A stretch of 64,000 nucleotides of DNA from an uncultured virus (IMG/VR IMGVR_UViG_3300032134_000001) (taxonomy: Duplodnaviria; Heunggongvirae; Uroviricota; Caudoviricetes). The DNA lies in IMG/VR virus record IMGVR_UViG_3300032134_000001. One strand, written 5' to 3'. This document shows positions 35,338 through 54,068 of the stretch, in pieces. Under the pieces are notes generated by a model that saw nothing but the letters and a program-made list of their open reading frames with translations, ran no database searches and was not told where the DNA came from. Numbering within the stretch: the stretch's first letter is position 1; each line of letters begins with the position of its first letter. The position numbers and the translations under genes were made by a program.

Positions 35338-36105
35338 TCAGGCTGCGACAGGGCGTCGGGCAGGTCCGGGCTGTCCCGCGGGACGCTTCTTCTTCCGGCG
35401 CCGCTTCTTCTGACCCTTGGGCTTCTTGGTCATCGTGTAGATGAGGAAGCCGCCGACGCCGAACACGGCCAGGCCGCCAACGATGAGCAGGGCACCACTG
35501 CCGCCGCCACCTTCAGTGGTCGCCACGTCCGTGCCTGTACCCTCTGCGATGAACTCGTCCTCGTAGAACTCGTCACCGCCCCCGCCGCCCTTCTTGCCCT
35601 TGGACTTGGACTTGGACTTCGCGGCTGTGGGCTTGTCCCATGCGCCGCCGCCGACCTTGGTGCGGATCTTGCCCTTGCTGTCGAACTCGACGCGGGTGAC
35701 CTTGCCCTTGGCGGCGACCTTCTCATCGAGGGTCTCGGCCTTCAGGAGCTTCTTCTCAGCGCGGCTGAGGATCTTCTTGCACCGCTTGTGGCCCTTGCCC
35801 TTCTTCTTCACGCACTTCCGGTACCGGGTCATCTTCCGGCCGGCAGACCGCTTCTTGCGGTCGCGGCGTCGAGCCTTGGCTCGTGCCGTCCACCACCAGC
35901 CGTAGTCGCCGTAGTCGCCCTCGGGGTAGCCCGCGAGGAACTCCTCCTCCGAGAAGGCGTACTCGTCCGGGTCGAAGTCTTCGTCGAACGCGAAGTCCTC
36001 GTCGTCGTAGTCGTCTTCATCGAACCCGTACTCGTCTTCGTCGTCCCTGGTGAAGTACCAGAGAGCACCGACGCCCAGGAGGATGAGGGGGAGCTTCGAG
36101 TCCAT
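35338..36105 (-). CDS. membrane protein: N-terminal TM, acidic tract ending DYGDYG, basic domain, C-terminal TM
   Basis: Direct reading of the translation. Confidence 0.7.
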   Translation of the reverse strand: MDSKLPLILLGVGALWYFTRDDEDEYGFDEDDYDDEDFAFDEDFDPDEYAFSEEEFLAGYPEGDYGDYGWWWTARAKARRRDRKKRSAGRKMTRYRKCVKKKGKGHKRCKKILSRAEKKLLKAETLDEKVAAKGKVTRVEFDSKGKIRTKVGGGAWDKPTAAKSKSKSKGKKGGGGGDEFYEDEFIAEGTGTDVATTEGGGGSGALLIVGGLAVFGVGGFLIYTMTKKPKGQKKRRRKKKRPAGQPGPARRPVAA

Positions 36106-36111
36106 CGTCGT

Positions 36112-37287
36112 CTACCCCATGCCCAGGCGGGCCTTGAGGTTCGCCTGGCGCTGGCTGCGGTACTCCTTGCGAGCTGACCGAACCTCAGCACGCCCCTTCT
36201 GGCGGGCTGCGATCGTCTTGCCCCGCTTCTTGGCCCGCTTGCTGCGCTTGGCGATGCGCTTCTTCCTGCGCTTCTGGCGAGCCTTGTAGTCGCCGTAGTC
36301 GTCGAGGTACGCCTCTTCGGTGATGGCCCCGAAGCCCAGGTCGAGGATCTGGAGGGCGTTGGTCCGGGCCTGACCGGCATGGTCGATGCCGAAGCCGAGG
36401 ATGCCTGCCAGCTCCATGTTCGCAGCCTGGTCGGCCGTGGCACCGCGGAGGCGGCGGTTCTGCGCGTGACGCATTGCCGGGCCTGCGCGGCGGCGCATCT
36501 GGGGAGGCTGGCCTCCCTGCTCCAGGCTCATCGTCTGCGGCGTGCCAGCCTGCTGGACCTGGATCGCGCGGCGCTGCATGGCGGCCTGGCGGCGAGCGGC
36601 GCGTGCTGCCAGTTGGGCAGGACCCACCCGTCGACCTCCGCCCTTGCGGAGCCGCCGGTTCTTGCGGCGGACCTTCTTGAGCTGCTTCTTGAGCTTGCGA
36701 CGAGAGCGCCACTTGCGCGGGTTCTCGATGGCCTCGGCTGAGCCGCCTGCGGCTTCCAGCTTCGTCTTGATCCACTCGCACTCGCTCTCCGACTTGGAGG
36801 CGAGGCACTGGCTGTAGGCCTGCGCGAGGGGGAGCTTCTTGCCGCCAGGAGCACCACTGCGCCGACGACGGTTGCCACCGCGCTTCATCCCGCCGTGACC
36901 GGCAGGGCGCTGACCCCGCTGACGCCGGTTCTGAGCGTGGCTCATGCTGGGGTTGTTGAGAGCGCCGCCCTCGTAGTCCCAGGCACCCACGCCGTCGAGG
37001 CTCAGGGGGCTCAGCCCAGCAGACCGTCGAGCCTTGTTCCACATGCGGAAGCGCTTCTTGGCTCCCGATGTGCCGGATTCGATCCGCTCGGCTGCACGCT
37101 CCAGGAAGGCCTGGCTGCGCTTGTCGATCATGGCCTTGAGACGGTTGCCCGACTTCCCAGCAGCGACGGCCGCCTGGTACTTCGCCAGGAGGTCCTTCGG
37201 GCCGGGGTTGTTGAGCGCACCGCCCTCATAGTCCCAGGCGCCGTAGGCTCCGTAGACGTCTGCGTCGGTGCTGGTGATGAAACCCAT
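36112..37287 (-). CDS. basic core-like precursor with duplicated GAWDYEGGALNNP and DDYGDY
   Basis: Internal 13-aa repeat; Arg/Lys-rich blocks. Confidence 0.7.
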   Translation of the reverse strand: MGFITSTDADVYGAYGAWDYEGGALNNPGPKDLLAKYQAAVAAGKSGNRLKAMIDKRSQAFLERAAERIESGTSGAKKRFRMWNKARRSAGLSPLSLDGVGAWDYEGGALNNPSMSHAQNRRQRGQRPAGHGGMKRGGNRRRRSGAPGGKKLPLAQAYSQCLASKSESECEWIKTKLEAAGGSAEAIENPRKWRSRRKLKKQLKKVRRKNRRLRKGGGRRVGPAQLAARAARRQAAMQRRAIQVQQAGTPQTMSLEQGGQPPQMRRRAGPAMRHAQNRRLRGATADQAANMELAGILGFGIDHAGQARTNALQILDLGFGAITEEAYLDDYGDYKARQKRRKKRIAKRSKRAKKRGKTIAARQKGRAEVRSARKEYRSQRQANLKARLGMG

Positions 37288-37314
37288 GGTGTTGTCCTCA
37301 GAATCGCGGAAGGG

Positions 37315-38298
37315 TCAGGGGAGGTCGGCGGTGGTGAAGTCTTCGTCGTCGCCACCGAAGAGGGGCTCGCCGGACTGCTTCTTCTTGTAGGCGTAGAAGC
37401 CAGCGCCGCCGAGGATGGCGAGCAGGACGCCGCCGATGAGGAGCTTGTTGGGCCCCTCCTCCTCAACTGCACCCTCTTCGTCGTCGTAGGCTTCCTCGGC
37501 CGCAGCAGGCAGCTCGGCCTGGTACGGGTCCATGCCGCCACCGCCGCCGCCCCCGCCACCACCACCGCCACCGGTGAAGTAGCCGGAGCTGTCGAGGGCT
37601 TCGGGCTGGTACTCGGCCTGGTAGGCCTGCTCGGGGGTCGCGGCCTGGTAGGGGGACTCGTACTGAGCCTCCGTCGCCAGAGCCATCGCCTCCTCAGAGG
37701 TCCGGGGCAGAGCGATGGCCCTGCGGAGTTCGGCCTTGCGCCAACGGCCTCCCTTGCCCGGGGGCCCGACGCAGACCAGCTTGGTGCCGCTGGCCGTGGT
37801 CCGACGAGCGCCGGACTTGCAACGCTGCTGGGACAGCTTGAAGGGAGCCAGCCAGCTCTGGGGGGCGCGAACCTTGGCGGCCATCGCCTTCTTCCGGCGC
37901 ATCTCGCGAAGGGCAGCGCTCTTGACAGCAGCGGCCTTCATCGCGCGGACGCGCTGGATCTTCGGGACTGCCGTGCCCTTCAGGCCCCGCGACTGGCGGA
38001 GAGCCTTGCGGGTGGACTTCCGGTGGGTCCGAATCGCCTTGCGGCCTTCACGGCGAGCCTGGCGCTTCTCCTTGCCCTTCAGCCCGCGGGTCTCCTGGCG
38101 GAGAGTGCGGCGGGCGCTGCGGCGGGTCTTCCGACCCTTCCGGCGGGTCTTGCGGCGTGACTTCCGCTTCTTGCGTCGAGCCACGCGCTCTGCGCGCCCG
38201 GCGTAGTCGCCCAGGTCACCGAGATCACCCAACTCGAACTCGTCCTCTGCGTCGATACCGGCGAGGGTGAGGCCGCTGAAGATTGCGCCGAGGTCCAT
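37315..38298 (-). CDS. protamine-like basic protein with acidic leader (LGDLGDLGDYAG), poly-Gly linker and C-terminal TM
   Basis: Direct reading of the translation. Confidence 0.7.
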   Translation of the reverse strand: MDLGAIFSGLTLAGIDAEDEFELGDLGDLGDYAGRAERVARRKKRKSRRKTRRKGRKTRRSARRTLRQETRGLKGKEKRQARREGRKAIRTHRKSTRKALRQSRGLKGTAVPKIQRVRAMKAAAVKSAALREMRRKKAMAAKVRAPQSWLAPFKLSQQRCKSGARRTTASGTKLVCVGPPGKGGRWRKAELRRAIALPRTSEEAMALATEAQYESPYQAATPEQAYQAEYQPEALDSSGYFTGGGGGGGGGGGGGMDPYQAELPAAAEEAYDDEEGAVEEEGPNKLLIGGVLLAILGGAGFYAYKKKQSGEPLFGGDDEDFTTADLP

Positions 38299-38319
38299 GT
38301 GTGTCTCCGAAAATGCTGC

Positions 38320-41300
38320 TCAGCTATCGTCAGGCTTGTGGGCCCCGGTGAGCTGTTCCAGCCTCTGTTGTATAAGACTCCGCAGCCTTTCGGAATCCCG
38401 CGCGACATGTTCGAGTGCTGCAAGTGGGGAGTTCGCCGGGAAGCGGGTGGGGGTGCTGCCTGCGACCCATCGCGTTGGCTGGCGGTACGGGGCCGTGACG
38501 GGGACGGGAAGAGGAGGGATGGGGTCCGTGGAGCGAGGCACGATCTTGGGGGCGTGAGCCTTTCCGAGCTTGGCCTCGATCTTGTCCTGGGCTGCCTGGG
38601 CCCGCTTGACACGACGCTCCTCTCGGAGACTCAGCGTGTTCGCAGCCCGCGTGGTGGCGAGGAGCGCGTCCTTCGCCCCGCGCCGGAGCCCGGAGAGGTA
38701 GGTGCCGGGGTCCTCTGCGAAGCCTGACACGCCCGTCGTCAGCTCCTTGGGCTTCTTGTTGCTCAGCTCCACCAGCCAGCCGCCCGTGCGGCCGTCCGGG
38801 AGGCGATGCAGTAGCGGGCTTCCGCCGACCCACGGGGTCAGCTTCTCCAGGGCAGGGTAGGCATGGCCTGCCTCCACCAGCTCGGGGTCGGACTCGTAGA
38901 GAAGCTGCTGCCCGGCGAGCGCGATGGCCTTGTACTGGATGCCCAAGCTGTCATCACTCTGGCTGCGGTCGAGGGACTGCAGGTGCCCGTGGAGCGAGTT
39001 GAAGAACCGGTCGTCGCCCAGCACGTTGCGGATCTTCTTCTTCAGCTTCTTGGGGTTGGCCCCCTTGCGCGCGGCCTCGTACATGATGCGCAGCGCCACG
39101 CCATAGCGCCCGACCCGGTCGACGTCTTGGAGGTAGCCGATGGCTTCGGGAGTGAGCGTCCCGTCCACTCGCGCCCAAGGCGTGCCGTAGTTCCACCACT
39201 GCTTGGTGAGCTTGAAGAGCACGGGGTTGAAGGTGTAGTAGAGCCGGTCGCCCCGGTTCAGGTGCTTGGCCATCGCCTGGCCGTACTGGTCAGCGTGGAC
39301 GCTGCTCTGGGCTGCCTTCCTCACCCCCGCAGCGAGGCCGTAGCCCTTCGGGTCGCGAGGGTCCGCACGGTCCAACCCCTCCCGGGCTTCCAGTAGGGTC
39401 AGGCGCTTCCCGGTGTGGCCTGCAGGGGGGAGGCGTCCTGCGTTCTCTGCGACGATGCCGAGGGTCTGCTGCGCTGCCTGCAAGAGGCGCTGAGTGTGGG
39501 CGCCGCCCATGACCTGGTAGATGAAGAAGAGGCCCTGGAGGATCTTGTGTCGGCGCTCGTCCTCCTTGAGGTCGGCCATCTCCGCGGTCGAGAGGTGCTG
39601 AGCAGTGTCCTTCGTGGCTCCCTGCCGCCGTTCCATCTCTTCGCGGTCCGGCCCACTGCCAGGGAACAGGGACAGCGCCCTGATGGTTCCCACCAGGCGC
39701 GAGATTGCCGAGCCGGCCGCAGCCTTCGGAAGCAGCCCTGACCCGACCTGCTTGGTGACGATGAGCGTCGCGAGAGCGGTGCCCCCGTCGATCGGCTTGG
39801 ACCTGCCCACGCTGAGCTGGAGCTGGAGCTTCATGACCTCGCGGTTCAGCTGCCCGAGGAAGGTCTGGGACATCCGTGCCCGGACCTGCTCCAGCAGACC
39901 CTGGTTGTTGTCCTTCTTCGCCCGCGCTTCGTCCTGCTGGAGCCGCTGCCAGGAGAAGTGGTCCTCCGTGAAGGGCCTCCAGGTGAAGCGCTCTGGCAGG
40001 TTGGCGTCGATGCCAGGCACCACACCGACCAGCTCGTCCCCGCCAATGACGCGAGCGACGCTACCCTTGTCCTGCATGACGAGGGCCACAGGGCCCTGGG
40101 CCGCAGCCTTGACCAGGGGCACGAGCGGCAGCCCGTCGGGCTCAGTGGGGCTCTGCCGGATTGAGGCCAAGACCCGGCGCTCTGGCACCTCTGCCGAGAG
40201 CGCCTTCGGGACTCGGGCCAGGCTGACGGCCACGTCCTGCATCCAGCTCGCGAACCAGGCCGAAGTACGGAGGGCGCTGTCGCCAGCCTTGATGAGGCTC
40301 GCCAGGGGCTTGCCGTCGCCTCCACTCTGGATCGTCTTTTCGAGCCAGCGGAGGTTGGAGCCCATCGTGTAGATCGGGCTCCTCAGCTCACGGGCGATCT
40401 CCAAGATCTCGTTGTACTGAGAGGTCGTACACCGCGGGGCTGTGGCGAAGGGATCTGCCGGGACGGTCTCGACAGCACCGGTTGCCTTGTTGCGGACACG
40501 GGTCGTAGTGGACAGGGGGCGCCGCATGGGCTGCCAGGTGAAGAACGGGTCGTGCGCCTTGTTCGAGTTGGGGTCGAAGGGCGGGGAGAAGAGCGAGGAG
40601 AGCCGCTCCATCACGGTCGGAACTTGGCGCCAGGCCGTGAAGGCCAGGAAGCCCTCTCCGGGCACCTCGTAGAAGAAGGTGTCCGCCGGGAGCTGGTACT
40701 CCGAGAACATCTTCCCGCTCTGCGTCTTGGTCGCGGCCGAGGACCGCCCAGTCACGTCGACCGTCCGGGCGCCCCAGGCCTTCTTCGCCCGGCGCTGGCG
40801 GACAGCGGCCGAGGACAGGGCTCGCTCGACCTTGACCCCGACCGGGGGGCGGCCAGCTTCGGCTGCCGCGACCTTCTCCTTCACCTCGTCGCGCTGGGTC
40901 TTGATCGACGCAAGAAGCTGCTTCTCTCGCCGGGTGGCAGCGCTGAGAGCAGCTTTGAACTCAGCTTGATTGCTCTGGGCGTCGACCAGCCGGGCGTAGA
41001 GCGGGAGCGGCAGCGTATGGTCCATCCGAGCCAGGACCTGGCGCTGGTGCCGGCGCAGGTCATCGGTCAGGTTGTAGGAGGCTGCCTCTGCCCAGACGGC
41101 AGCCGTGGCAGCTTCCAGACTCTTCGTCCCGGTCGCCTGCATGGCCGCCTGGGCGAACTTCATGGTGCTGCTGATGCCAGAGAAGTCGTGGCGGGCCAGG
41201 GGAGAGGACTCACTGCTCTCGGCGCTGCGCAGGACTTCGACCCCTGCGATGAGGAAGGACACCCTCTCCATCGCCTGCATCGCTGTGAAGCGCTTGAGGA

Positions 41301-42876: not shown

Positions 42877-42879
42877 CTC

Positions 42880-43263
42880 TCACATGCTCGCGGCCAGGAT
42901 GACGTCCACAGTGGCGTTGGGACCTCCTGCGGGCACGGTGAAGGTGGCGCCAATCATGTTGCAGATCAGCCTTGTAGCGACCAAGAGGGGCGTGCCCAGG
43001 ATGACAGCCTGGGGGATAGTCACCGGGAAGTAGCGAGGCTGAGCAGCGAGATTGTCCACAGCGAACAGGGGGTTGAAGGTACAACCGGCCGGACCCGCAG
43101 CCATGACGCAGTACCAGACGCACGCAGGGAGCGTGTTGCTCTGCAGCTCTGCGAGGTTGACCCCAGAGGTCGTGCCCTGAAGCACGACGAGCGGGAAGCG
43201 CCGAGCGATCTTCGCAGAAGCGAGGACCTGACCACCTGAGATGACGTTGCGAACGAGAGGCAT
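42880..43263 (-). CDS. small beta-rich virion protein candidate
   Basis: Strand pattern; downstream of the capsid candidates. Confidence 0.55.
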   Translation of the reverse strand: MPLVRNVISGGQVLASAKIARRFPLVVLQGTTSGVNLAELQSNTLPACVWYCVMAAGPAGCTFNPLFAVDNLAAQPRYFPVTIPQAVILGTPLLVATRLICNMIGATFTVPAGGPNATVDVILAASM

Positions 43264-43264
43264 G

Positions 43265-43879
43265 TCAGTACATCGCCGCCTGGAAGTGGATGTTGGGCCC
43301 GAGGCCCCCGATGTTGTCCCACTGGAGCTGGAGCTGCCAGTAGCGAATCGGGTAGCCCTCGCCCAGCGTCTCGAACACCAGAACGATGGAGTCCGGCTGG
43401 TCCGTTCCGAGCATGACCTCGGAGCTGATGTCGATGCGAGGGGTCACACGCACGACAGGGTCGCGTCCAATCTGAGCCGGAAAGCCAGTGGACGGAGGTG
43501 TGGGGATGCCGACAGCTCGGGTTGGCCCGGCCTGCGTCACGTTGCCCCAGGTGGTGTTGGCTGACTCTCGGTACCCGACACGGAGGTTGTCCGTGTTCGT
43601 GACGGGGTTGATGAGGTTGAAGAACTGAATGTAGAGCCGAGCGCCGGAGTCCCAGATGGGCACACCGGTCTTCACCCCTCCTGGCTGGGAGGAGCGAAGA
43701 TCAGGGCGCAGGTCGAAGGTGGGGGTGTGCCAGGTAGCGAGGTCGTCGCCTCCCGGACCCACACCAACCCACGGTACAGGCATCCCCGGCTGGGTAGACC
43801 AAAGCGTAGTCGGAATCTCCTTCGCCGCAGGCGAAGGGATACTTCCGTAGGGGTTCCTGTAGTTCTCTTCGCGGCCCAC
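43265..43879 (-). CDS. beta-rich virion protein candidate (minor capsid/penton-like)
   Basis: RLYIQF, LRVGY, IRYWQLQLQW, IHFQAAMY strands. Confidence 0.55.
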   Translation of the reverse strand: MGREENYRNPYGSIPSPAAKEIPTTLWSTQPGMPVPWVGVGPGGDDLATWHTPTFDLRPDLRSSQPGGVKTGVPIWDSGARLYIQFFNLINPVTNTDNLRVGYRESANTTWGNVTQAGPTRAVGIPTPPSTGFPAQIGRDPVVRVTPRIDISSEVMLGTDQPDSIVLVFETLGEGYPIRYWQLQLQWDNIGGLGPNIHFQAAMY

Positions 43880-43891
43880 GGGCGGCTCCGA

Positions 43892-44890: not shown

Positions 44891-45601
44891 TCAGCCCAGC
44901 TCGATGACCGACTTGTAGTAGCCGAGGAGCACGATGCGGACGGCGACGCCCTGGCCCGTCGCTCCGAGACCGGACGCACGGGACCCGAACTGCACCAGGA
45001 CGGCGAAGGTCGAGTTGCCCGGCAGGGCCACGGGGTGACGACGGTACATCCAGATGCCGCCGTTGCCGTTGCCCATGGAACCGGAGTTCGCACCAGCAGC
45101 GTTCTGTGCGATGGCACCGAACGCGCCTCCGCCAGCACCGGCCAACATCAGGGGGCAGATGAACACCTGGGTCTGGGTGAAGTCCCAGAGCAGCACGCCG
45201 TTGTTGATGACGTTCTGGAGGTCGCTGACGAGGCCGAGGGTGTTGGCTCCGGCAACGCCGTCGGCGTTGAAGGGCACGTCGAGCTGGTCGTTGGCTGCGT
45301 CCCAGGCCATGACCTGACCGGCGACGCCGAACACGTCGTAGGCCTGGCCGGACGGGATTCGACCAGCTTCCTTGAGGTTGGTCTCGGTCACGGTCATGGC
45401 CGTGGGGAAGCCCTGGCCGGTCTGCCCGAGGGGCGTCGCGAACAGGCGGTTGCTGGTGTTGGCCAGCGCCGTGGCGGCAGCGGCCGCGCCGAGGGCGACA
45501 GTGCTGTAGAGGGTGATCTCACCGAACCGGAAGAGGTTCGAGGGCTGGTGCTGCGGGACACCGGGAATCGGGCCGGCACCGGGAGAGACGAGGGGCTGCA
45601 T
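44891..45601 (-). CDS. candidate major capsid protein (single jelly-roll type)
   Basis: LYST...LFATPLGQ...TETNLKEAGRIPSG..YDVFGV...VALPGNSTFAVLVQF...VRIVLLGY; Gly/Ala/Thr-rich, strongly biased codons; fold inferred, not computed. Confidence 0.5.
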   Translation of the reverse strand: MQPLVSPGAGPIPGVPQHQPSNLFRFGEITLYSTVALGAAAAATALANTSNRLFATPLGQTGQGFPTAMTVTETNLKEAGRIPSGQAYDVFGVAGQVMAWDAANDQLDVPFNADGVAGANTLGLVSDLQNVINNGVLLWDFTQTQVFICPLMLAGAGGGAFGAIAQNAAGANSGSMGNGNGGIWMYRRHPVALPGNSTFAVLVQFGSRASGLGATGQGVAVRIVLLGYYKSVIELG

Positions 45602-45713: not shown

Positions 45714-47819
45714 CTACAGGCCGGCACCGCCGAAGACGGTGGCGCCGTAGGCGCCGAAGACGCCACTGACGCCGTCGGGACCGGTCTGGCCGAGAGGGGC
45801 CAGCTCGGGAGCCGACAGCACCTGCTCCTGGGCCTGGACCTGGAGCTGCGAGAACGTGTCGAGCGCGTTCGAGCGGAGCTTCTTGATGACGATGACGCGC
45901 TGCTTGGGCGGCATCGCGGCCAGCTTCTGGACGTTGGCCCAGCCGATCATCTTGATCAGCCAGCCCCAGCGGTGTCCCGGCTTGGAGGCCAGGTGGGAAG
46001 CACCGCCACGGGTTCCGCCCATCCGCTGAACGCGGCGGGTCGGAGCACCGAAGCGCCGGTGGAAGGCACCGCGACCGTTGACGAGGGCCTGGCCCTCACC
46101 GAGGTCGAAGTCGGCCCCGCTGTAGTACGCATCGCCCAGGCTGGCCTGACCGTAGTCGTCGCCTTCCTCTGCGATGGCACCGAGCTGGTAGGCCATGCCG
46201 TCACCGTAGGCATCACCGAAGGTTCCGGTGTTCTCCAGCGCGAGTCCGCTCAGGTCGTCCTCGTAGAAGGCGCCGTAGTTGTCGAGCGCGAGCCCGGCGA
46301 TGTCAGCGTCTTCCGCGCCCTCGTCGTCACCACCGGCAGAGGTGCCGCCGGCGAAGTCGAGGATGGGACCGGCCATGATGATGCCCGTGCCGAGAGCCGA
46401 GCCGTAGGTCGAGAGCATGGGCTGACCCAGCTTCCGTCCCGCGATCTGGCTGATGGCGATCAGTGCGATGCCAGCGATGGTGCCCGAGACGGTGTTGTCC
46501 AGCTCCATGCCGCCGATGACGGGGATGGCATCCGGGACACTGAGGTCCAGGAGCTTCTCACCGATGACCGGGATCTTGGGCAGGAGGTCTTCCACCTTGT
46601 CAGCCACAAAGGCGTGGCCGAGCGCACCAGCCAGGCCCACCAGGACCAGCTTGCCTGCGTCAGCGGCCACGCCTCCGACGAAAGGGACAGGGTTGTCCAA
46701 TGCGAGGGCGCCGTAGTTGTCCAATGCGAGGGCGCCGTAGTTGTCGAGCGCGAGGGCTCCGTAGTTGTCCTGGGCGATGCCGTGCTTCTTGCGGTAGTGC
46801 TTCTTCGGGTGCCGCGGGTTGGCGCGAGCGCCACCCTTGTACATCACCGACAGCTCCTTCATGGAGAGGCCGGAACCCTTGTGGCTCTTGACGAACTTGA
46901 GCCAGGGGTTGTTCTTGGCAGCCTTCTTGGCCGACCGACGACGCTCGGCGGGGGTCCGCACGATCGGCTTGCCGGGGTACTGGGGCTTGAAGCCGCCCGT
47001 GATGAGCGTGCCGGAGCCCTTGGGCTTGCCGGTCTTGTAGTTGTGGCTTCCACCTGCGGCGGCGCCCCAGATGTCGCGGGAGCCCATGCGCTTGGCGCCC
47101 GGGTTCTTGCGAGCACGGACCGAGGCTTCGGCATCGGCCGGGCCGCCCCAGTAGGCGAGGCCAGCCTTGCGACCGACGCGGCCGGCGTTGTAGCCACGCG
47201 ACGTGACGCGGTCGACGATGACCGGCTGGCGGGTCACGTGACCGCGCTTGGTCTTGTAGCGGCGAGCGGGCCCGAGGGTCCGCTTCTTGCCCCACTTCAT
47301 GCGGCCGGCGGCCGTGGTGTGGAAGCGGTCGGAGTAGCCGGGGCGTCCGGTGAGGTCCATCTGGACGAACACGTCGATGACGGCCTGCTTGGCGGCGCGG
47401 CGAATGTCCGGGTCACCCTTGGGGAGACCGGCGTAGAACTTCTTGCGCTGGGCCTTGCTCATGCCCTTCAGCTCTGCGGAGGGCTTGCGGGCGAACTTGC
47501 CGCGGTACTGACCCTTGGCACCCTCGCCCCACTTGCTGGCGGCGGAGGTCCACTCGGCCACGAGCTTCGCAGCGTTGTGGTCGATGTAGCCGTAGGGATC
47601 GTTCGATCCGTAGGCTTCTTTGGTCAGGATGCGGGCGATCTTGTTGACCCGACGGTGGTCGTTCGGGTTGCGACGTGCGGATGCCATTTGGGACTTCCTG
47701 GGATTGGAGATGAGGATCGCCCCGTGGAGAGGCATGAAGTTGGAACTTGACGCGGCCACGGGGGCCTCCCTCCTCAGGGTGTCTTCAGCAATCTCTCGCG
47801 TGGCGGCCCATTTGTCCAT
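45714..47819 (-). CDS. 701-aa core/membrane precursor: basic RxNP-punctuated half, DNYGALAL repeats, hydrophobic segments, acidic YG-rich region
   Basis: ISNP, RRNP, RKNP, KNNP, RANP, LDNP; immediately upstream of the capsid candidate. Confidence 0.75.
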   Translation of the reverse strand: MDKWAATREIAEDTLRREAPVAASSSNFMPLHGAILISNPRKSQMASARRNPNDHRRVNKIARILTKEAYGSNDPYGYIDHNAAKLVAEWTSAASKWGEGAKGQYRGKFARKPSAELKGMSKAQRKKFYAGLPKGDPDIRRAAKQAVIDVFVQMDLTGRPGYSDRFHTTAAGRMKWGKKRTLGPARRYKTKRGHVTRQPVIVDRVTSRGYNAGRVGRKAGLAYWGGPADAEASVRARKNPGAKRMGSRDIWGAAAGGSHNYKTGKPKGSGTLITGGFKPQYPGKPIVRTPAERRRSAKKAAKNNPWLKFVKSHKGSGLSMKELSVMYKGGARANPRHPKKHYRKKHGIAQDNYGALALDNYGALALDNYGALALDNPVPFVGGVAADAGKLVLVGLAGALGHAFVADKVEDLLPKIPVIGEKLLDLSVPDAIPVIGGMELDNTVSGTIAGIALIAISQIAGRKLGQPMLSTYGSALGTGIIMAGPILDFAGGTSAGGDDEGAEDADIAGLALDNYGAFYEDDLSGLALENTGTFGDAYGDGMAYQLGAIAEEGDDYGQASLGDAYYSGADFDLGEGQALVNGRGAFHRRFGAPTRRVQRMGGTRGGASHLASKPGHRWGWLIKMIGWANVQKLAAMPPKQRVIVIKKLRSNALDTFSQLQVQAQEQVLSAPELAPLGQTGPDGVSGVFGAYGATVFGGAGL
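46692..46770. repeat. 24-bp tandem repeat x3 (plus partial) encoding DNYGALAL
   Basis: GTTGTCCAATGCGAGGGCGCCGTA twice, a variant third unit; related copy near 46270-46295. Confidence 0.9.
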
Positions 47820-47890
47820 GTAGCAGAACTGGATTCCTTCAACATGGGATGCTACAGGTTGTGCTACAAACTCACGGATGGAGGTCGAGC

Positions 47891-48136
47891 ATGGCTAAAG
47901 AGCTGGTAGGGCATCACCTCCTGCGAGTACGAATCCGCCGCAGCATCTTCGAGAAGCTACAGGCGACCGCATTGGAAGAGTCCCAGCGAACAGGCGACCA
48001 CGTGACGGTCAGCGACCTGGTCCGGGCTGCCTGCTACAACTACCTGCTCATCCACGAAGCGGTGCAGAAGCTGGAGAACAGCCCGCCCGAGGAGATCGGG
48101 GACGCTGTGCTGGTCATCACGAGCCCGATGCTCTGA
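47891..48136 (+). CDS. ribbon-helix-helix-like DNA-binding protein
   Basis: LRVRIRRSIFEKLQ...TVSDLVRAAC; GGAGG SD. Confidence 0.6.
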   Translation: MAKELVGHHLLRVRIRRSIFEKLQATALEESQRTGDHVTVSDLVRAACYNYLLIHEAVQKLENSPPEEIGDAVLVITSPML

Positions 48137-48139
48137 GGC

Positions 48140-48508
48140 TCAGTCTCGGCTGCTGCTCACGAAGCCCATCACGACCCCGAAGAGCACGACCGGCCAGAAC
48201 CACTCCTTCTCGTAGAAGGGCTGGGGCTCATCGTGAAGCGGCGAGGAGTCGCCTTCCTGCCCGCTGGTGATCAACACCATCTCCTTGTCCCCGACGGGGA
48301 GGGGGGAGAGACCGGGGGAAGTCGCTTCTTCTGCCCGCCGCTTGGCCGCAGCTGCATGGCGGCCCGGGTGCAGGCTCGCCCACGAGATGTCGTTGCCGAC
48401 GAAGGGGATGGGCACCGACGCTTCCGCGCGGTCCGCCTCGAAGAAGTCCCACGAACCAGTCTCGGCCGTCAGGGGCCCCGAGTAGCCAGACGGCTGGAAG
48501 CTCGACAT
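48140..48508 (-). CDS. tail-anchored membrane protein, FQPS leader
   Basis: MSSFQPSGYSG...PFYEKEWFWPVVLFGVVMGFV. Confidence 0.65.
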   Translation of the reverse strand: MSSFQPSGYSGPLTAETGSWDFFEADRAEASVPIPFVGNDISWASLHPGRHAAAAKRRAEEATSPGLSPLPVGDKEMVLITSGQEGDSSPLHDEPQPFYEKEWFWPVVLFGVVMGFVSSSRD

Positions 48509-48510
48509 GC

Positions 48511-49068
48511 TCAGTCCTTCAGCAGGATGACGGCGGTTCCGAGGAGCAGGATGGTGCCCGAGACAGCCACCGGGATGAACCAGGGCTGCTTGTAGAAGGG
48601 CGTGTCTCCGAACGCGCTGCCCGTGTCGAGAGCCGACTGGCCCCCTCCGGTGATGGCCGCGATGGCCGCAGCGGGGGCGGGAGTGGAGGTGCTGCCACCC
48701 TTCTCGACGTTGTGATAGAACCATTTCGCTGCCGACTTCACAGCGGCGGCAGACTTGGGCGCACCCACAGAAGTGGCCCCGGCCTTGATGTCCCCGAAGT
48801 ACTTCGCCAGCTTCTTCGGGTTGGTGACCTTCGATGCTTCTGCTCGCATCGACGCGAGGTTGGCTCGGGTCTCGCCATCAAGGTGGCCGCGCTCAGCTTC
48901 GACAGCCCTGCCGACGTTGGCGAGGAAGCTGCTCATGCCCGCTGCCGTCGTCACCTGGGCCCCTGCGATGTCAGACAACCGAGAGTCAAGGCTCGGGTTG
49001 AGCTGTGCCGCCGTGGGGAGCCCGATCAAGGACTGCCTGTGGCTGTAGGGAGATGGTTGGAAGCGCAT
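48511..49068 (-). CDS. tail-anchored membrane protein, FQPS leader
   Basis: MRFQPSPYSH...PFYKQPWFIPVAVSGTILLLG. Confidence 0.7.
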   Translation of the reverse strand: MRFQPSPYSHRQSLIGLPTAAQLNPSLDSRLSDIAGAQVTTAAGMSSFLANVGRAVEAERGHLDGETRANLASMRAEASKVTNPKKLAKYFGDIKAGATSVGAPKSAAAVKSAAKWFYHNVEKGGSTSTPAPAAAIAAITGGGQSALDTGSAFGDTPFYKQPWFIPVAVSGTILLLGTAVILLKD

Positions 49069-49092
49069 GGCGTGTCCTCGAAGAGTGCTGTC

Positions 49093-49147
49093 AGGGTAGC
49101 TCAGCGCAGGGGAGCGAGCCGCCGGAGGGCTGAAGGTCGAGTGCTAC
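49093..49147 (-). promoter_or_regulatory. putative late promoter GTAGCAC(49147)...TACCCT(49098)
   Basis: 49-nt offset; GAGCTACCCTGA identical to the 16309 site. Confidence 0.7.
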
Positions 49148-49216
49148 CTCGCGGGGCCGTGCTCTCGCTTGACCGGAAGCCCCGCGCCGCGCCTGCTGCC
49201 TCCCGTGCCTGCTTGA

Positions 49217-49867
49217 TCAGTCCGTGATTCCCGGGGTTGGGGACGTGTAGTTGCCGCCGCAGATCCAGAGCCGGCCCTTCGCGTCGCAGCAGAGGATGGG
49301 GAAGTAGCAGCTCATCTCGCCCATGCGGTGGATGTAGAAGCTCGGCCCGTCGTCCTTCTTGTTGGTGTAGTAGACGACAGCGGTCATCACGCCGACGGGC
49401 TTGGCGCTGACGCGAGGGTAGCCGCCCCGGGCGTGTCGACCTCCGGCCAGCAGGGCCCATTCGGAGAGCTGCCGGGCGCCTACGCTGTTGTCACCCCAGA
49501 AGCGACCGGCCAGGCTCTTCCTCGCCTGCGGCTCGATGAGCATGTACAGGCGGTCGTCGGGATGCTCGGGGTCGAAGACCAGCTGGTTCTGCGCGGCCGA
49601 CGACTGAGTGAAGGCAATGGTTGTGTCCCGCCGCCTGCGCGGGTGCGTCCCGTCCTGGCTGGCGTTGGGGGCTCTGACGTGGATGCGGGCGAGGTTCCCG
49701 CACTCGATCAGCACGCCCTCGGGGTAGTCGGGGTCGTCCCACTCCACGAGCTTGAGCTGGCTGTCGAACTCGTCTGGTTCGTACCACTTCCAGTCCGCAG
49801 CCATCGTGCGGCCCCGCTCGTACTGCTTGGGGGTGAGCTTCCCGCGGTTCTTGCGTGCCTTCTTCAT
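49217..49867 (-). CDS. soluble globular protein of unknown function in the membrane-protein cluster
   Basis: Start MKKARKNRG by ATGA overlap; YIHRMGE...PIL...GRLWICGGNY...GITD. Confidence 0.65.
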   Translation of the reverse strand: MKKARKNRGKLTPKQYERGRTMAADWKWYEPDEFDSQLKLVEWDDPDYPEGVLIECGNLARIHVRAPNASQDGTHPRRRRDTTIAFTQSSAAQNQLVFDPEHPDDRLYMLIEPQARKSLAGRFWGDNSVGARQLSEWALLAGGRHARGGYPRVSAKPVGVMTAVVYYTNKKDDGPSFYIHRMGEMSCYFPILCCDAKGRLWICGGNYTSPTPGITD

Positions 49868-50946
49868 TCTCGATTCCTCACGTGCCCGATGACTGCCGAG
49901 GTGGCGACCAGAGCAAAGGAGATGCCCCCTGCCCACGCCAAGACTGTCACGGCACTAACGATGTCTTGGCCCTTCATCTCGCCCACCTTGACGGCGACGG
50001 ACTCCTGATAGGCCAGCTTGGCCTTCTCCTGCGCGACCTGAGCCTTGATCGCTTCGGACTCCTTGTCGAAGCCCCACTCCTCCAGGTTGGCCTGGAGCTT
50101 CTGCTGAAACTTACCGGCTGCGCCCTTCGCGATGGACTGCTTGACCGCAGCCCCGGCGGAGATGGCTCCTGTGACCAGAGCTGCCCCCTCCAAGATCGCA
50201 GCCACGGGGAGTGTGACAATGGCGGTCACCACGGAAGCCGACGCCGCGGCACTGGTGCCGGCTGCGATGTGGAGACCTGCCGAAGCGGCCCCCGTTGCGG
50301 CCGACGTGATGGCGGACCGCTTCATGCTGGCCCCCAGCATGGGGAGGGCTCGGGCAGGCCAGGCGACACCCTCAAGCTCGTGTCTCTGGACGATGCGGCG
50401 GATCTCCCCCGACGCTTTCTTGAGTGAGCCGTGGAAGTTCTTGCCCGTCGCCTTCGCGGCGACGCGGACCAGCTTCTTGTCCTGGGTGGTGCTCTGCTTC
50501 ATCTTCTGCGGCAGCGACTTGACGTTGATGTCCTCGTAGCCCTCGATGCCCGCGAGCTGGAGGGCGGTGAGGCCACCGAGGACGGTGCCGCGCCACTCGC
50601 TTCGGATCTGTGGGCGGGAGGGGCGGTACCCCCGAGCTGCTCCGGTGAGGCCAGAGCCGCCCATTCGCTGCCGCCGATACCAGGGGAACTTCACGGACCA
50701 GAGCTTCTTGTAGGTCGACTTCGGGTGGAGGCTGGGCCTCCGGCCCTTGGCCTTGGCCTTCAGCACGCCGGCCCTGTACTCCAGCCGGTCTGCCGCCTTC
50801 TTGTTCCCCCGCTTCCGCTTGCGCTTGGCGCGCTTCAGCTTGTTCTTGGCGCGGCCCTTCTTGCTCCAGATGTTCTGGAGCCAGCCGTGGTACTCGGCCT
50901 CCGACGCGAAGCTGTGCTCAGAGGGGTGGAACTCCAGCTCATACAC
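49864..50946 (-). CDS. basic membrane protein, FHPS leader (paralogue of 50939..51940)
   Basis: GTG start MYELEFHPSEHSF; EWRGTVLGGLTALQLAG; C-terminal TM. Confidence 0.7.
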   Translation of the reverse strand: MYELEFHPSEHSFASEAEYHGWLQNIWSKKGRAKNKLKRAKRKRKRGNKKAADRLEYRAGVLKAKAKGRRPSLHPKSTYKKLWSVKFPWYRRQRMGGSGLTGAARGYRPSRPQIRSEWRGTVLGGLTALQLAGIEGYEDINVKSLPQKMKQSTTQDKKLVRVAAKATGKNFHGSLKKASGEIRRIVQRHELEGVAWPARALPMLGASMKRSAITSAATGAASAGLHIAAGTSAAASASVVTAIVTLPVAAILEGAALVTGAISAGAAVKQSIAKGAAGKFQQKLQANLEEWGFDKESEAIKAQVAQEKAKLAYQESVAVKVGEMKGQDIVSAVTVLAWAGGISFALVATSAVIGHVRNRE

Positions 50947-51940
50947 TGCGGCCACGCCGGACCCACCACACCAGGCCCCCCACGAGCAGGACCCCGGAGA
51001 CTGCCGTGGCGATCTGGAGCTTCCGGCCCAGCGCCTTGCCCTCGATCTCGGCTTCCTGCTTGGCGACCTCGGTGGCAGCAGCAACTTCCTGCTTCATCGA
51101 GTCGGCCTGCATCCGAGCGAGCTGAACGGACTGCTGGACCCCGGCCTTCTCCAGCCCGCGAGCTGCCTTGTCGGTGAAGGCTGCCGTCTCCTTCTTGAGC
51201 AGCGCCCCGTGGGCGGACTCTTGGGCGGCGATGGCCATGGGGATGAGGCCGTAGGGCATCGGGACGATGGCGGTGGCCACCCCGGCCCCGGCTGCTCGGA
51301 CTGCTGCGCTGATGACAGCAGGCTGGATCATGATGAGCGCCCGGTAGTTCCAGGCCACGTTCTCCAGCTTGTGCTGAATCACCTTGGCGCGAATGGCCTC
51401 GGCAGCTGCCTTGAGGCTCTTCTTGCCCGCCAGGGCCATCAGCTTGGGGTCGTACTTGTTGCTCGGCGCGAGTGGCACCTTCACCTTGGTGAGGTCCAGC
51501 TCGGCGTAGCCGGGCACGCCCGCGGCCTGAAGCGCTTGGAGCCCGCCCAGGATGGTCGAGCGCCACTCCCGGTTCTGGAACATCGCAGGCGGTCGGGAGC
51601 CCTTGGCGATGGGCTGGCTCAGCTTCTCGTAGGCCATCCCGCCGACGAAGGTGTAGGCGACGGCCTGCTTGGCAGTGCTGGGCCGGTCGCCCCAGGGGTA
51701 CTTGGACGCCCACAGTGCCCGTGCCTTGGACTTCTGCGTGAGCTTCTTGAACTTCTTGCCCGACCTTCGCGCGTCGCGACGAGCCTCTCGGGTCGTCTGC
51801 CGCTCCTGCCGGGCCTCCTTGCCCACGAAGCCCTTGACCCGCTCCTTCAGCTTCAGCTCCATCTTGCCGTAGTCGCCCAGGTACTCCGCCTGGCGGGCAC
51901 CGGGGGGCACGAAGCTGTGGGGGGAGGGCTGGAACTGCAT
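50939..51940 (-). CDS. basic membrane protein, FQPS leader + DYG
   Basis: MQFQPSPHSF...LGDYGK; EWRSTILGGLQALQAAG; C-terminal TM. Confidence 0.7.
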   Translation of the reverse strand: MQFQPSPHSFVPPGARQAEYLGDYGKMELKLKERVKGFVGKEARQERQTTREARRDARRSGKKFKKLTQKSKARALWASKYPWGDRPSTAKQAVAYTFVGGMAYEKLSQPIAKGSRPPAMFQNREWRSTILGGLQALQAAGVPGYAELDLTKVKVPLAPSNKYDPKLMALAGKKSLKAAAEAIRAKVIQHKLENVAWNYRALIMIQPAVISAAVRAAGAGVATAIVPMPYGLIPMAIAAQESAHGALLKKETAAFTDKAARGLEKAGVQQSVQLARMQADSMKQEVAAATEVAKQEAEIEGKALGRKLQIATAVSGVLLVGGLVWWVRRGRSV

Positions 51941-52399
51941 CTACTTGAGCTGCGCCTGGAGGAGGCGGCGCTGCATCTTCTCAGTCTTGGTCTTCTGGCG
52001 GACGTAGTTGCCAATGAGCAGGGCAGTCAGGGCACCTGCCGCGAGCAGCACAGCGCCGCTGATCTTGCCCGCCTGGGTGGTGATGACCGCAGCCCTTTCC
52101 TCCCCGACCAGCTCTTCGAGCGCCCGGATCTCGGCCTGGAGGGACCGGATCTTCATCGCGTAGATGTTCCGCAGGAAGGAGCTGGGCGCCTTGTTGTACA
52201 TGTTGGTGTAGTTGGCGAGCGCCGCCTTCTTCTTCTCGTACTTCTCGCGCGGGTCACCGCCGAAGAGGAGAGCCGAGATGGCCGGAGCGTACTGCTCCAG
52301 AGCCTGTGCGGCCTGCTGCTGACTGCCGCCGTCCGCGGCCTCATCTGCACCGTAGGCACCGGCCACGTCGCCATAGTCGCTGGGGATGAAGTGGCTCAT
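51941..52399 (-). CDS. membrane protein, FIPS leader + DYG/AYG
   Basis: MSHFIPSDYGDVAGAYG; C-terminal TM. Confidence 0.7.
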   Translation of the reverse strand: MSHFIPSDYGDVAGAYGADEAADGGSQQQAAQALEQYAPAISALLFGGDPREKYEKKKAALANYTNMYNKAPSSFLRNIYAMKIRSLQAEIRALEELVGEERAAVITTQAGKISGAVLLAAGALTALLIGNYVRQKTKTEKMQRRLLQAQLK

Positions 52400-52866
52400 T
52401 CGTACTCGTCCTCGTACTCATAGTCGTAGTCGTCACTGCCGCCGCGACGGACTGCGACGACCGCTGCTGCGATGAGGCCCACGGTCATGAGGACCCCACC
52501 CACAACGAGGAGAGTCTTGGTGGTGCCGAGGCTCGCGACGGCAGCAGCAGCGCGGTTCGCTGCACCCTGAGCCAGCGACTGTTCGGTCTGGAGAGCCAGC
52601 AGCTTCTCCTGCTGCTTCGCGAGCTTCTGCTCGTGCTTCTGCTGTGACTTCAGCGCGGAGGCCTGGAAGCCCATCGTGATGCCAGTCGAAGCCAAGGCGC
52701 CGACGGCGGAGATCCCCGCAGCCCAGGCGTCAGCCTTGGCTCCCGCAGCTTGGGCCTGCGCCAGCTCTGTCTGTGAGGGCTGGCCGATCGTAGTCGCGTT
52801 GAACAGCTCCTCGGTGGGGTTCCGAAGAGCGTTGGCGCCCGAGTAGGGGGAAGGCTGGAAGCTCAT
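52396..52866 (-). CDS. tail-anchored membrane protein, FQPS leader (paralogue of 52863..53249)
   Basis: MSFQPSPYSG..LRNP; SQQKHEQKLAK...LQTEQ. Confidence 0.7.
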   Translation of the reverse strand: MSFQPSPYSGANALRNPTEELFNATTIGQPSQTELAQAQAAGAKADAWAAGISAVGALASTGITMGFQASALKSQQKHEQKLAKQQEKLLALQTEQSLAQGAANRAAAAVASLGTTKTLLVVGGVLMTVGLIAAAVVAVRRGGSDDYDYEYEDEYE

Positions 52867-53249
52867 TCTTCGTAGTCCTCCTCGTAGGTAGGCGGGCGGC
52901 GGTTGATGACGATGGCCCCCGCGATCATGCTCACCCCGACGAGGACCGCGGCGACGAGGAGGAGGGTCTTCTTGGACCCCCCTTCTTCGAGAACCCCAGC
53001 CGCCCGTGTGGCGGCCACCTGGGCCTCAACCTGCTCGGTCTGGAGACGGATCAGCTCCTCTTGCGCCTTGGCCAGGCCCTTCTCGTGCTTCTGCTGAGAC
53101 GCTTGGGCCTTCTTCCCGGCCGACACGCTGATGCCCGTCGCAGCAAGCTGACCAGCGACACCGATTGCCACTCCTACGACCTGAGCCCAGCCGTAGTCCC
53201 CGGAGTCCGAAGCAGGCCCCGAGTATGCCGATGGCTCGAAGGCCCGCAT
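52863..53249 (-). CDS. tail-anchored membrane protein, FEPS leader + DYG
   Basis: MRAFEPSAYSG...GDYGW; SQQKHEKGLAK...LQTEQ. Confidence 0.7.
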   Translation of the reverse strand: MRAFEPSAYSGPASDSGDYGWAQVVGVAIGVAGQLAATGISVSAGKKAQASQQKHEKGLAKAQEELIRLQTEQVEAQVAATRAAGVLEEGGSKKTLLLVAAVLVGVSMIAGAIVINRRPPTYEEDYEE

Positions 53250-53252
53250 CCG

Positions 53253-54068
53253 CTACTCCTCGTAGTCGTCGTCATCGTCTCGCGTGGCCAGGTACACCCC
53301 GCCGCCGATCAGGCCGAGGACCACGACGCCGCCGATGATGACACCCCAAGGGGCTCCGCCTCCGCCCGTGTCCTCGTAGGTCTCCTCCTCGAAGGTGAGG
53401 TCTTCCTGCGGGCCGAGGATGGACATGAGAGAGGGGAGGAGCTGGGCCGCAGCAGCGCCGATGCCCGCTCCGATGCCCGCACCTGTCGCTGCACTCTTGG
53501 TGGAGCTGGACGAGCTGCCGGAGGAGCCGCCACCCATGAGACTGGCGAGGAAGGAGTTGGCACCACTGCTGGAACCCCCCGCGTCTCCGGGGTGGTCGCC
53601 GTACCACTTGGCGACCTGCTTGGCGCCGGCGTGCGTCGGACCCCAGTGATCGCCCGTGTACTTCTGGCCCTTGGGGCCCACCACGTCCACGGAGTTGTCA
53701 GGGTGCTGCTTGTAGGTGTAGCCGTCGCCCGTGCCTGAGAGCAGGCGAGGCTCAGCCGGAGCCGAGGACGCACTGCTCGTGGAGCTGCTCTTGTCCTTCT
53801 TCCCGAACAGGTTCGCGAAGAAAGCGGTCTGGTCGGTCTTGTCCGCCTTCCGGTCTTCCTTCTTCTGGGCCTTCGCCTCGGCGGCTTCGAGCTTCTCCTC
53901 GTCCGTCTTCTTCTTGAAGATGTCGAAGAGACCGTCGTAGTCGTCCGGGTTGTGGATCGCCTCCATGGTCGGAGCATCCTCACCGACGCGCTGCTGCACC
54001 TTGCCCGGAAGATCGCCAAAGCCGGGCGGGAGGAAGTCCGAGGAGATGCTGCCGAAGTTGTCGTTCAT
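53253..54068 (-). CDS. tail-anchored membrane protein with DNFG/DYDG leader
   Basis: MNDNFG...HNPDDYDGLFDIFKKK; C-terminal TM then acidic tail. Confidence 0.7.
   Translation of the reverse strand: MNDNFGSISSDFLPPGFGDLPGKVQQRVGEDAPTMEAIHNPDDYDGLFDIFKKKTDEEKLEAAEAKAQKKEDRKADKTDQTAFFANLFGKKDKSSSTSSASSAPAEPRLLSGTGDGYTYKQHPDNSVDVVGPKGQKYTGDHWGPTHAGAKQVAKWYGDHPGDAGGSSSGANSFLASLMGGGSSGSSSSSTKSAATGAGIGAGIGAAAAQLLPSLMSILGPQEDLTFEEETYEDTGGGGAPWGVIIGGVVVLGLIGGGVYLATRDDDDDYEE

Follow-up and report, generated by a model that had tools for sequence, protein, structure and literature searches.

A short N-terminal leader ending in Tyr-Gly is shared by otherwise unrelated proteins of an uncultured bacterial virus and is most likely an assembly signal that is trimmed

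Otherwise unrelated proteins of an uncultured virus (IMG/VR record IMGVR_UViG_3300032134_000001) begin with a short tag that is real and conserved and, as judged from the sequences, is most likely an assembly signal that is trimmed. The tagged genes lie in a minus-strand block (35.3-62.0 kb; closely packed genes, high G+C at third codon positions) of the window, by which we mean the whole 64-kb stretch of DNA analysed (G+C about 66%). An earlier note on this DNA had cited eight peptides of this block as a cleavage motif at which acidic propeptides ending in Tyr-Gly (YG) would switch abruptly to basic segments. All eight were found in the genes to which they had been assigned, and the motif forms the distal end of an N-terminal leader in two parts, M-x-F-x-P-S-x-Y-S...Y-G. 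Our preferred explanation, to which we give slightly less than an even chance, is that this tag directs proteins to the membrane and core of the particle and is trimmed after its Gly by a co-encoded enzyme. Genes of the block are named here by their start coordinate (Table 1).

Occurrence of the motif was compared with 300 within-protein shuffles of the block (23 proteins, 8160 aa) and of the remaining 43 genes of the window (10117 aa). In the block, [D/E/N]-Y-G was observed 15 times where 3.0 +/- 1.8 occurrences were expected, a number reached by none of the 300 shuffles, and YG 34 times against 21.9 +/- 4.5 expected, which was reached by a single shuffle. The other 43 genes contained no [D/E/N]-Y-G (2.9 expected) and 11 YG (20.8 expected). 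This enrichment in the block, together with the absence of [D/E/N]-Y-G from the other genes, implies that the motif is real and block-specific. The postulated switch from acidic to basic sequence was present at some of the sites: net charge rose from -6 in the 20 residues before the site to +8 after it in 36105, from -5 to +11 at the C-terminal site of 37287, from -8 to +13 in 38298 and from -5 to +8 in 50946, and more weakly, from -1 to +4, in 51940. It was missing in 54068 (-5 before, -1 after), in 53249, where a hydrophobic segment follows YG, and in the repeats of 47819. The coordinate 54068 given in the earlier note is the gene start (MNDNFG...), and the cited DDYDG of that gene ends at residue 46.

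The commonest form of the leader was M-x(0-3)-F-x-P-S-x-[Y/H]-S, with Y-G following 0 to about 25 residues further on. Two variants were found, MDLGxxFxGLxLGD...DY[A/S]G and an N-terminal hydrophobic helix with an acidic spacer ending in [Y/F]-G. A six-frame scan of the window for F-x-P-S gave 21 matches, seven of which lie at most five residues from the start of a block gene (53249, 52866, 52399, 51940, 50946, 49068 and the gene at 48140-48508) and one inside the putative trimming enzyme. An in-frame stop precedes Met1 of 51940 at a distance of zero codons and Met1 of 53249 at two codons, so that the N-terminal position of the leader is certain in these two genes. Related contigs were gathered using the 236-aa protein encoded at 44891-45601 as marker, for which 660 database homologues were found at E <= 1e-3. 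The resulting 71 loci comprise an IMG/VR contig (L001), a 3-kb contig binned to a Gemmatimonadota metagenome-assembled genome (L002) and 69 metagenome loci, several of which come from contigs of 86-150 kb. Among 111 distinct F-x-P-S matches in these loci (at least 50 open codons), 44 were on the gene strand and at most four codons from a start codon.

After removal of two evident false positives, window and loci (about 36 distinct locus genes) yielded 43 distinct full leaders. Aromatic-(x)-Gly was found within 45 residues in 36 of them, the Gly having a median position of 15 (range 9-38). At this boundary P1 was Gly in 36/36 and P2 Tyr in 26/36 leaders, P3 was mostly Y, D, S or N, and P1' mostly A, F, G, V or W. 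Cross-linking of Gln to Lys by a true transglutaminase at the Gln of F-Q-P-S was considered and discarded, since x is Gln in just 27 of the 43 leaders. By BLAST, the tagged proteins have no mutual similarity except for the paralogue pairs 53249/52866 and 51940/50946, and profile-profile comparison of six conserved block families (45601, 44473, 43879, 43263, 49936 and 54331) gave no pair above 1% probability. Most tagged proteins have a single hydrophobic helix at their C-terminal end and are therefore regarded as tail-anchored. One tagged gene, at 48140-48508, is absent from the earlier note; its orthologue in locus L005 has the leader MKFTPSGYSG. The leader of 49068 ends in L-N-P and lacks Tyr-Gly, and in 50946 the leader is followed by a Trp-rich and then a basic segment.

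The earlier note had suggested examining the motif in homologues, and it is indeed conserved in the families of 36105, 38298, 37287 (C-terminal site), 53249 and 54068. The window protein 36105 was compared with nine database homologues and one member from locus L042. In 10 of these 11 proteins aromatic-(x)-Gly stands precisely at the junction between the N-terminal part and the Lys/Arg block, in the forms GDYGDYG, SEYGDYG, DEYG, LGDYG, EFGDYG, EFSG, EFG (twice) and EPYG. All ten members with a hydrophobic N-terminus have an acidic segment (net charge -8 to -24), which contains a conserved FDPxEYAFxExEF stretch, before the basic block (+17 to +35). In the L042 member, MHFQPSPLSYGEPYG replaces the hydrophobic and acidic N-terminus in front of the same basic domain, and no acidic segment is present. 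In the 38298 family, D-Y-[A/S]-G precedes the same basic run in 2/2 orthologues. BLAST found no orthologue of the 37287 protein; by gene position, orthologues were identified in loci L005 and L019. Its C-terminal site is kept in L019 (1/1) as DEYGFTEG before VKRRQKRR, and at its N-terminal site L005 keeps DVYGAYSG and L019 has T-N-P. Y-(x)-G is retained in 3/3 orthologues of 53249 and 2/2 of 54068.

The broadest sampling was obtained for 52399. In an alignment of nine orthologues, F4, P6, S7, Y16 and G17 are the only invariant residues among the first 38. When this alignment was used as a profile to search 1.84 billion representatives (50% identity clusters), 211 proteins were returned at E <= 1e-3, the best 150 of which were listed. 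Among these 150, YG occurs within the first 60 residues in 97, a 4-fold excess over the 22.5 expected from shuffles, and aromatic-(x)-Gly in 131. F-x-P-S lies within the first 75 residues in 89, in 63 of these within the first five. Distant relatives without F-x-P-S often still begin with a Y-G-[A/D/E] stretch.

The candidate trimming enzyme is the 352-aa protein encoded at 60987-62045, which accounts for the one exception in a block where Pfam, PHROGs and NCBIfam otherwise recognised almost nothing. Its match to PF01841 (Transglut_core) in Pfam is below threshold (E 2.3e-4; 21.9 bits, curated cut-off 23). A database search gave 541 homologues, and the same family match is precomputed for many of the 120 that were listed. 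The AlphaFold2 (AF2) model has a mean predicted local distance difference test (pLDDT) score of 81, with more than 90 in the core, and indicates a papain-like transglutaminase core fold. In Foldseek, 3isr (E 1.6e-4), TglA 9crn (2.9e-4) and 3kd4 (6.2e-4) matched best, followed by TG2/TG3, TgpA, PeiP/PeiW and LapG (structures 4fgp, 4fgo and 4fgq, E about 1e-2), at probabilities of 0.9-1.0. Both 3isr and 3kd4 are bacterial transglutaminase-like putative cysteine proteases. A Pfam scan of the window gave no match to clan CE families and placed the enzyme in the transglutaminase-like group; profiles A2 and A3 searched against PDB sequences returned nothing below E 0.3. C120, H167, E186 and D197 (P0122 numbering) are invariant in 62 aligned sequences and correspond, with an offset of +9, to Cys129, His176, Glu195 and Asp206 of the window open reading frame (ORF), the third catalytic member being Glu195 or Asp206. 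In the explanation preferred here, the enzyme would act as a peptidase and not as a cross-linker or isopeptidase.

The enzyme ends with a long hydrophobic helix, which implies that it is tail-anchored too. Between core and anchor it has a basic linker followed by S-P-A-Y-x-x-A-Y-G. Among the 120 listed homologues, SP[AVGI][YIH] is present in 103 and x-[YW]-G in 95; conservation is at least 90% at S241, P242, A243 and Y244. Seventeen of the 120, all closely related to the window protein, have a full leader copy directly after A-Y-G, as in the window enzyme itself (AYG-S-FQPSQHSTDYG-QSAL). The offset from Gly to Phe is 1 in 13 of these 17 copies, the same as the commonest offset from Met1 to Phe in free leaders (23/42), so that a cut after A-Y-G would give a leader-like N-terminus. 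We consider this coincidence the best indirect sign that Gly is the cut site. Contigs of 110139, 41757, 377090, 175072 and 29391 nt (matched on identical size) appear among the homologues of both the marker and the enzyme, and this recurrence of five contigs suggests that the two genes travel together.

The particle to which these proteins would belong fits a tailless, membrane-containing type, given at least ten tail-anchored proteins, a jelly-roll-like protein and no tail genes recognised. The jelly-roll-like protein is the 236-aa marker, modelled by AF2 as a jelly-roll-type beta-sandwich (pLDDT 71). Its best matches were a cyanophage cement protein (Z 7.7), the SPV1 capsid protein (Z 6.8) and HHIV-2 (Z 5.5); Foldseek gave PRD1 P5 at E 1e-2, and these matches are at or below the level that the tool calls common. 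A fold search in BFVD returned generic jelly-roll capsids only (E >= 1.9e-3). For the 44473 protein, the protein atlas gave unnamed viral clusters and, as a weak 0.75 lead, PM2 P2 domains only. Terminase_6N gave no match in record G001.

Altogether, we propose that, in a widespread, uncultured family of bacterial viruses, the leader marks proteins that are to reach the particle's core and inner membrane. It would serve as an assembly or recognition signal, and the membrane-anchored Cys-His enzyme of transglutaminase fold would trim it after Gly. The enzyme's own S-P-A-Y-x-x-A-Y-G sits in the flexible linker between catalytic domain and anchor, with A-Y-G at residues 256-258, and in four families the trimmed protein would begin, right after Gly, with a Lys/Arg-rich domain that probably binds DNA. 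The predicted cuts would fall after residue 69 of the 36105 protein, 34 of 38298, 21 of 50946, 20 of 53249 and 17 of 52399. A further-reaching version, possible but rather doubtful in our estimation, would make this system the bacterial-virus counterpart of adenovirus and poxvirus core maturation. The enzyme would then be activated by a self-cut at A-Y-G, and leaders, with A-L-x-N-P as an alternative ending, would be trimmed from at least ten tail-anchored proteins and from histone-like core proteins; the leader would at first attach these proteins to the jelly-roll shell, from which its removal would release membrane and core, with the DNA-binding domains becoming exposed.

Several observations weigh against the proposal that Tyr-Gly leaders are trimmed by this enzyme during assembly, or against the reading given in the earlier note. 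Tyr-Gly is not the sole boundary motif, since 7 of the 43 leaders lack aromatic-Gly, several of these ending in A-L-x-N-P, and the eleventh member of the 36105 family has AIALDNG at the boundary. The four DNYG of 47819, which the earlier note had counted as instances of the motif, turned out to be instances of a repeated unit, [GA]-[LI]-A-[LIV]-[DET]-N-x-G. Orthologues have M, F, L, N, E, T, P or Y at position x, which implies that Tyr is not a conserved part of it, and the repeats appear to belong to a different, at most related, motif (ALALDNxG). A maturation enzyme of the adenain, poxvirus I7 or ASFV (African swine fever virus) protease kind, as envisaged in the earlier note, does not agree with the transglutaminase fold of the enzyme, and this enzyme may have another job, because cross-linking enzymes and cell-wall endoisopeptidases such as PeiP/PeiW have this fold as well. 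In its AF2 model the linker has a pLDDT of about 71-88 up to the S-P-A-Y helix, and A-Y-G lies where confidence drops to about 50. Neither the 236-aa protein nor the enzyme had a tblastn match in 50,697 phage records, so that no cultured relative was found there. Pfam, PHROGs and NCBIfam recognised no terminase, portal, HK97-type capsid or prohead protease in the 64-kb window or among the 22 proteins of a 41-kb relative, and no packaging ATPase of the FtsK/HerA type was recognised in the window or in the 41-kb relative, the only Walker A motifs of the window being those in the AAA_24 and SbcC-like replication genes and a weak site in the 37287 protein; in both cases the genome exceeds the window.

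The charge context bears both on this proposal and on the model of the earlier note, in which Lys/Arg-rich, DNA-condensing segments are kept neutralised by acidic prodomains and become unmasked by a cut after Gly. That model agrees with the 36105 family, where the acidic segment is conserved and all ten members with a hydrophobic N-terminus are acidic and then basic, nine of them with aromatic-Gly at the boundary. It does not extend to the other families or even to the whole of this one, as the L042 member does without an acidic segment, and in the 38298 leaders a long Lys/Arg-rich block is preceded by no more than about 3-9 acidic residues. Leaders with F-x-P-S are generally not acidic, with net charges from -4 to +3, and the 20 residues after their Gly are basic (>= +4) in 3/36, acidic in 15/36 and neither in 18/36; among the listed matches of the 52399 family, YG is followed by acidic sequence in 57/97 and by basic sequence in 2/97. 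As the F-x-P-S leaders are not generally acidic and are more often followed by acidic than by basic sequence, charge neutralisation is not a general rule, and we regard it as an improbable explanation of the tag as a whole. It is more improbable still that the tag has no common function and that gene duplication and low-complexity drift in small membrane proteins left Tyr-Gly as an incidental feature. Two pairs of tagged proteins are paralogues, and disordered termini commonly contain Tyr, Gly, Ser and Asp. Beyond these pairs, however, BLAST detected no similarity, nor did profile comparison among six other block families; within a family the tag residues are the sole invariant ones of the N-terminal region, YG is 4-fold above expectation even among representatives clustered at 50% identity, and the tag occurs inside an enzyme too.

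A retained tag deserves more weight, although we consider it rather unlikely. The leader would then be an uncut targeting or anchoring signal which binds the capsid shell, a scaffold or an insertion factor and gathers tail-anchored proteins in the viral membrane, and the enzyme, sent to the particle by its own copy, would act there as an endopeptidase that opens the cell wall on entry or exit. In favour of this reading, the modular tag is always found at a free N-terminus, and in the 36105 family an N-terminal hydrophobic helix and the F-x-P-S leader can take each other's place. The enzyme, a tail-anchored protein too, has PeiP and PeiW, which are phage-derived endoisopeptidases, among its fold matches. 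However, a lysin with PG_binding_1 and CHAP domains is already encoded in the window (12164-12991), and the spacing between F-x-P-S and Y-G, varying from 0 to about 25 residues, would be unusual for a single binding epitope. Moreover, the near-invariant A-Y-G at the border of domain and linker, with a leader copy one residue on, is easier to read as a cut that frees an N-terminus.

Table 1. Marker, tagged proteins and enzyme in the 64-kb window, with the parts of each that are discussed in the text (TM, transmembrane)
Feature	Position	Strand	Remarks
255-aa protein (36105)	35338-36105	-	homologues keep boundary
N-terminal hydrophobic segment of 36105 protein	36049-36105	-	
Acidic segment of 36105 protein	35899-36048	-	ends GDYGDYG
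Lys/Arg-rich block of 36105 protein	35701-35898	-	then C-terminal TM helix and basic tail
391-aa basic protein (37287)	36112-37287	-	three x-N-P sites; orthologues by position in L005 and L019
Leader MGFITSTDADVYGAYG of 37287 protein	37240-37287	-	
DDYGDY site of 37287 protein	36286-36324	-	precedes basic tail 36115-36285
327-aa protein (38298)	37315-38298	-	C-terminal TM helix
Leader MDLG...GDLGDYAG of 38298 protein	38197-38298	-	
Lys/Arg-rich block of 38298 protein	37879-38196	-	
236-aa beta-sandwich (jelly-roll-like) protein, marker	44891-45601	-	highly conserved; 660 homologues; AF2 model
701-aa protein with ALALDNxG repeats (47819)	45714-47819	-	repeats at 46689-46781 and 46272-46295
122-aa protein	48140-48508	-	leader MSSFQPSGYSG (48476-48508); C-terminal hydrophobic helix
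185-aa tail-anchored protein (49068)	48511-49068	-	leader MRFQPSPYS...AAQLNP (48994-49068)
360-aa tail-anchored protein (50946)	49864-50946	-	GTG start at 50946; leader MYELEFHPSEHS...AEYHG (50884-50946)
333-aa paralogue of 50946 protein (51940)	50939-51940	-	leader MQFQPSPHS...LGDYG (51866-51940)
152-aa tail-anchored protein (52399)	51941-52399	-	leader MSHFIPSDYGDVAGAYG (52349-52399), then acidic linker
156-aa tail-anchored protein (52866)	52396-52866	-	leader MSFQPSPYSGANALRNP (52816-52866); acidic Tyr-rich C-terminal tail
128-aa tail-anchored protein (53249)	52863-53249	-	leader MRAFEPSAYSGPASDSGDYG (53190-53249)
271-aa tail-anchored protein (54068)	53253-54068	-	N-terminal region MNDNFG...DFLPPGFGD...HNPDDYDG (53931-54068)
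352-aa transglutaminase-fold enzyme	60987-62045	-	core 61401-61808; C-terminal TM helix
Linker motif SPAYDVAYG-SFQPSQHSTDYG of enzyme	61236-61298	-	

A second boundary motif, [A/G]-[L/I]-x-[L/I/S]-x-N-P, was noticed in the genes at 36112-37287, 45714-47819, 48511-49068 and 52396-52866 and in orthologues from L005, L019 and L039. Its forms are AILISNP, ALALDNP, GGALNNP (twice), AAQLNP, ANALRNP and AIENP, and it often closes a leader without Tyr-Gly or stands directly before Arg/Lys runs (AETNP-RRKRK; FVSNP-RRRRRR). The dipeptide NP was rejected as a block-specific motif, since it is as enriched in the non-structural genes (38 observed, 15.6 expected) as in the block (33 observed, 12.1 expected); the interest lies in the longer A-L-x-N-P context alone. 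The listed ATG of 47819 is probably too far upstream, as its orthologues begin M-(x)-PL(S/H)GAIL(I/V)(S/T)NP. The true start is probably the Met of FMPLHG in the region 47735-47770, and the true N-terminus of the product is likely MPLHGAILISNP. At the other end of the proteins, acidic Tyr-rich tails follow the membrane helix in three tail-anchored proteins (DDYDYEYEDEYE, TYEEDYEE and DDDDDYEE; 52396-52440, 52863-52900 and 53253-53290), unlike the poly-basic tail of the 36105 protein.

Further features of the block were recorded. A small conserved gene on the opposite strand within it, at 47747-48136 (+) (MAKELVGHHLLRVRIRRSIFEKLQ...), has a counterpart in L001 at 2291-2959 (-) and may be a regulator. 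A 239-aa protein (49217-49936, -) with 50-68% identity across 28 locus ORFs and the C-terminus GGNYTxPxPGITD had no family match and no match in the protein atlas. L001 carries, at 5414-7204, a 596-aa ORF and three small ORFs inserted between the genes of the 236-aa and a 193-aa protein. This insert is absent from the window, and the 596-aa ORF, judged by eye, looks like a methyltransferase plus HNH-type endonuclease.

The replication and lysis genes of the window are of phage type and include a family-A DNA polymerase fused to a UDG domain, an AAA_24 ATPase, an SbcC-like ATPase, an SNF2 helicase, an HNH endonuclease and a tyrosine integrase; a single tRNA gene, for tRNA-Arg, is present. Two genes are family-A polymerase-like: that at 4935-8807 (+) encodes the UDG-exonuclease-polymerase fusion of 1290 aa, and that at 33669-34874 (-) is a separate 401-aa ORF matching the DNA_pol_A profile in its middle only. 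Four ORFs in tandem, all exactly 118 aa long (24763-25119, 25123-25479, 25488-25844 and 25854-26210, all +) gave no Pfam match above the curated cut-off. In the literature we found no description of this virus group, its tag or its enzyme, and six heptapeptide forms of the tag were not found in any paper.

In its logic, adenovirus maturation seems to be the nearest analogue of the proposed system. According to PMC4246237, the adenovirus protease cuts (M/I/L)XGG-X or (M/I/L)XGX-G in pIIIa, pVI, pVII, pVIII, pre-mu, pTP and L1 52/55k. In this system one viral cysteine protease, AVP (adenain), acts at short Gly-containing sites on capsid and core precursors, including DNA-binding core proteins. 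Similarly, a Gly-ending motif precedes Lys/Arg-rich domains in four families of the window, a Cys-His enzyme is co-encoded, and a Gly-containing consensus is common to several candidate precursors and conserved among relatives, the sites being candidates recognised in the sequences. In contrast, the window enzyme has a transglutaminase-like fold, its predicted sites carry Tyr at P2 and follow no rule of a hydrophobic P4, membrane anchors are present in the enzyme and in most candidate substrates, and the host is bacterial.

Other systems share single elements. Internal proteins of phage T4 carry a short N-terminal capsid targeting sequence that is removed by the prohead protease gp21, and a short N-terminal tag common to proteins that are otherwise unrelated by BLAST, as such a targeting sequence would need, is found in the window. 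The T4 tag ends in L/I-x-E, however, its protease is the serine protease of tailed phages and membrane anchors are not involved, whereas the window proteins have such anchors and no HK97-type head genes were recognised in the window. In vaccinia virus, the N-terminal tail of the membrane protein A17 holds the jelly-roll lattice of D13, and the cysteine protease I7 cuts at A-G-X in maturation. The block has a like combination of membrane proteins, a jelly-roll-like protein and a cysteine protease-like enzyme, although vaccinia is a eukaryotic virus whose protease belongs to clan CE and recognises another motif. LapG is a site-specific processing protease, periplasmic and calcium-requiring, that cuts a di-alanine site in one adhesin. 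The window enzyme resembles LapG and the bacterial transglutaminase-like cysteine proteinases (BTLCP) in fold class and in its conserved Cys and His; unlike LapG, it is virus-encoded and tail-anchored and would act on many proteins at Tyr-Gly. Double-glycine leaders, whose last two residues are small and have Gly at P1, are removed for secretion by papain-like C39 peptidase domains fused to ABC exporters. They resemble the window leaders in their N-terminal position, variable length and Gly at P1, but Pfam scans found no such ABC transporter among the window genes.

To our knowledge, membrane and core proteins are known to mature by proteolysis in eukaryotic jelly-roll viruses (adenoviruses, poxviruses and ASFV) and in tailed phages, which use other enzymes, but not in bacterial viruses that lack a tail and contain a membrane. 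Viral leader tags served by a dedicated protease are already known in kind; here such a tag is found in an undescribed group of bacterial viruses, and its cleavage is predicted. Since the tag, the candidate enzyme and the predicted cut sites are defined, the question is directly testable. Metagenomes of marine, freshwater and sediment origin contain the group in abundance (660 marker and 541 enzyme homologues), and with the tag one can look there for particle proteins of these viruses by sequence.

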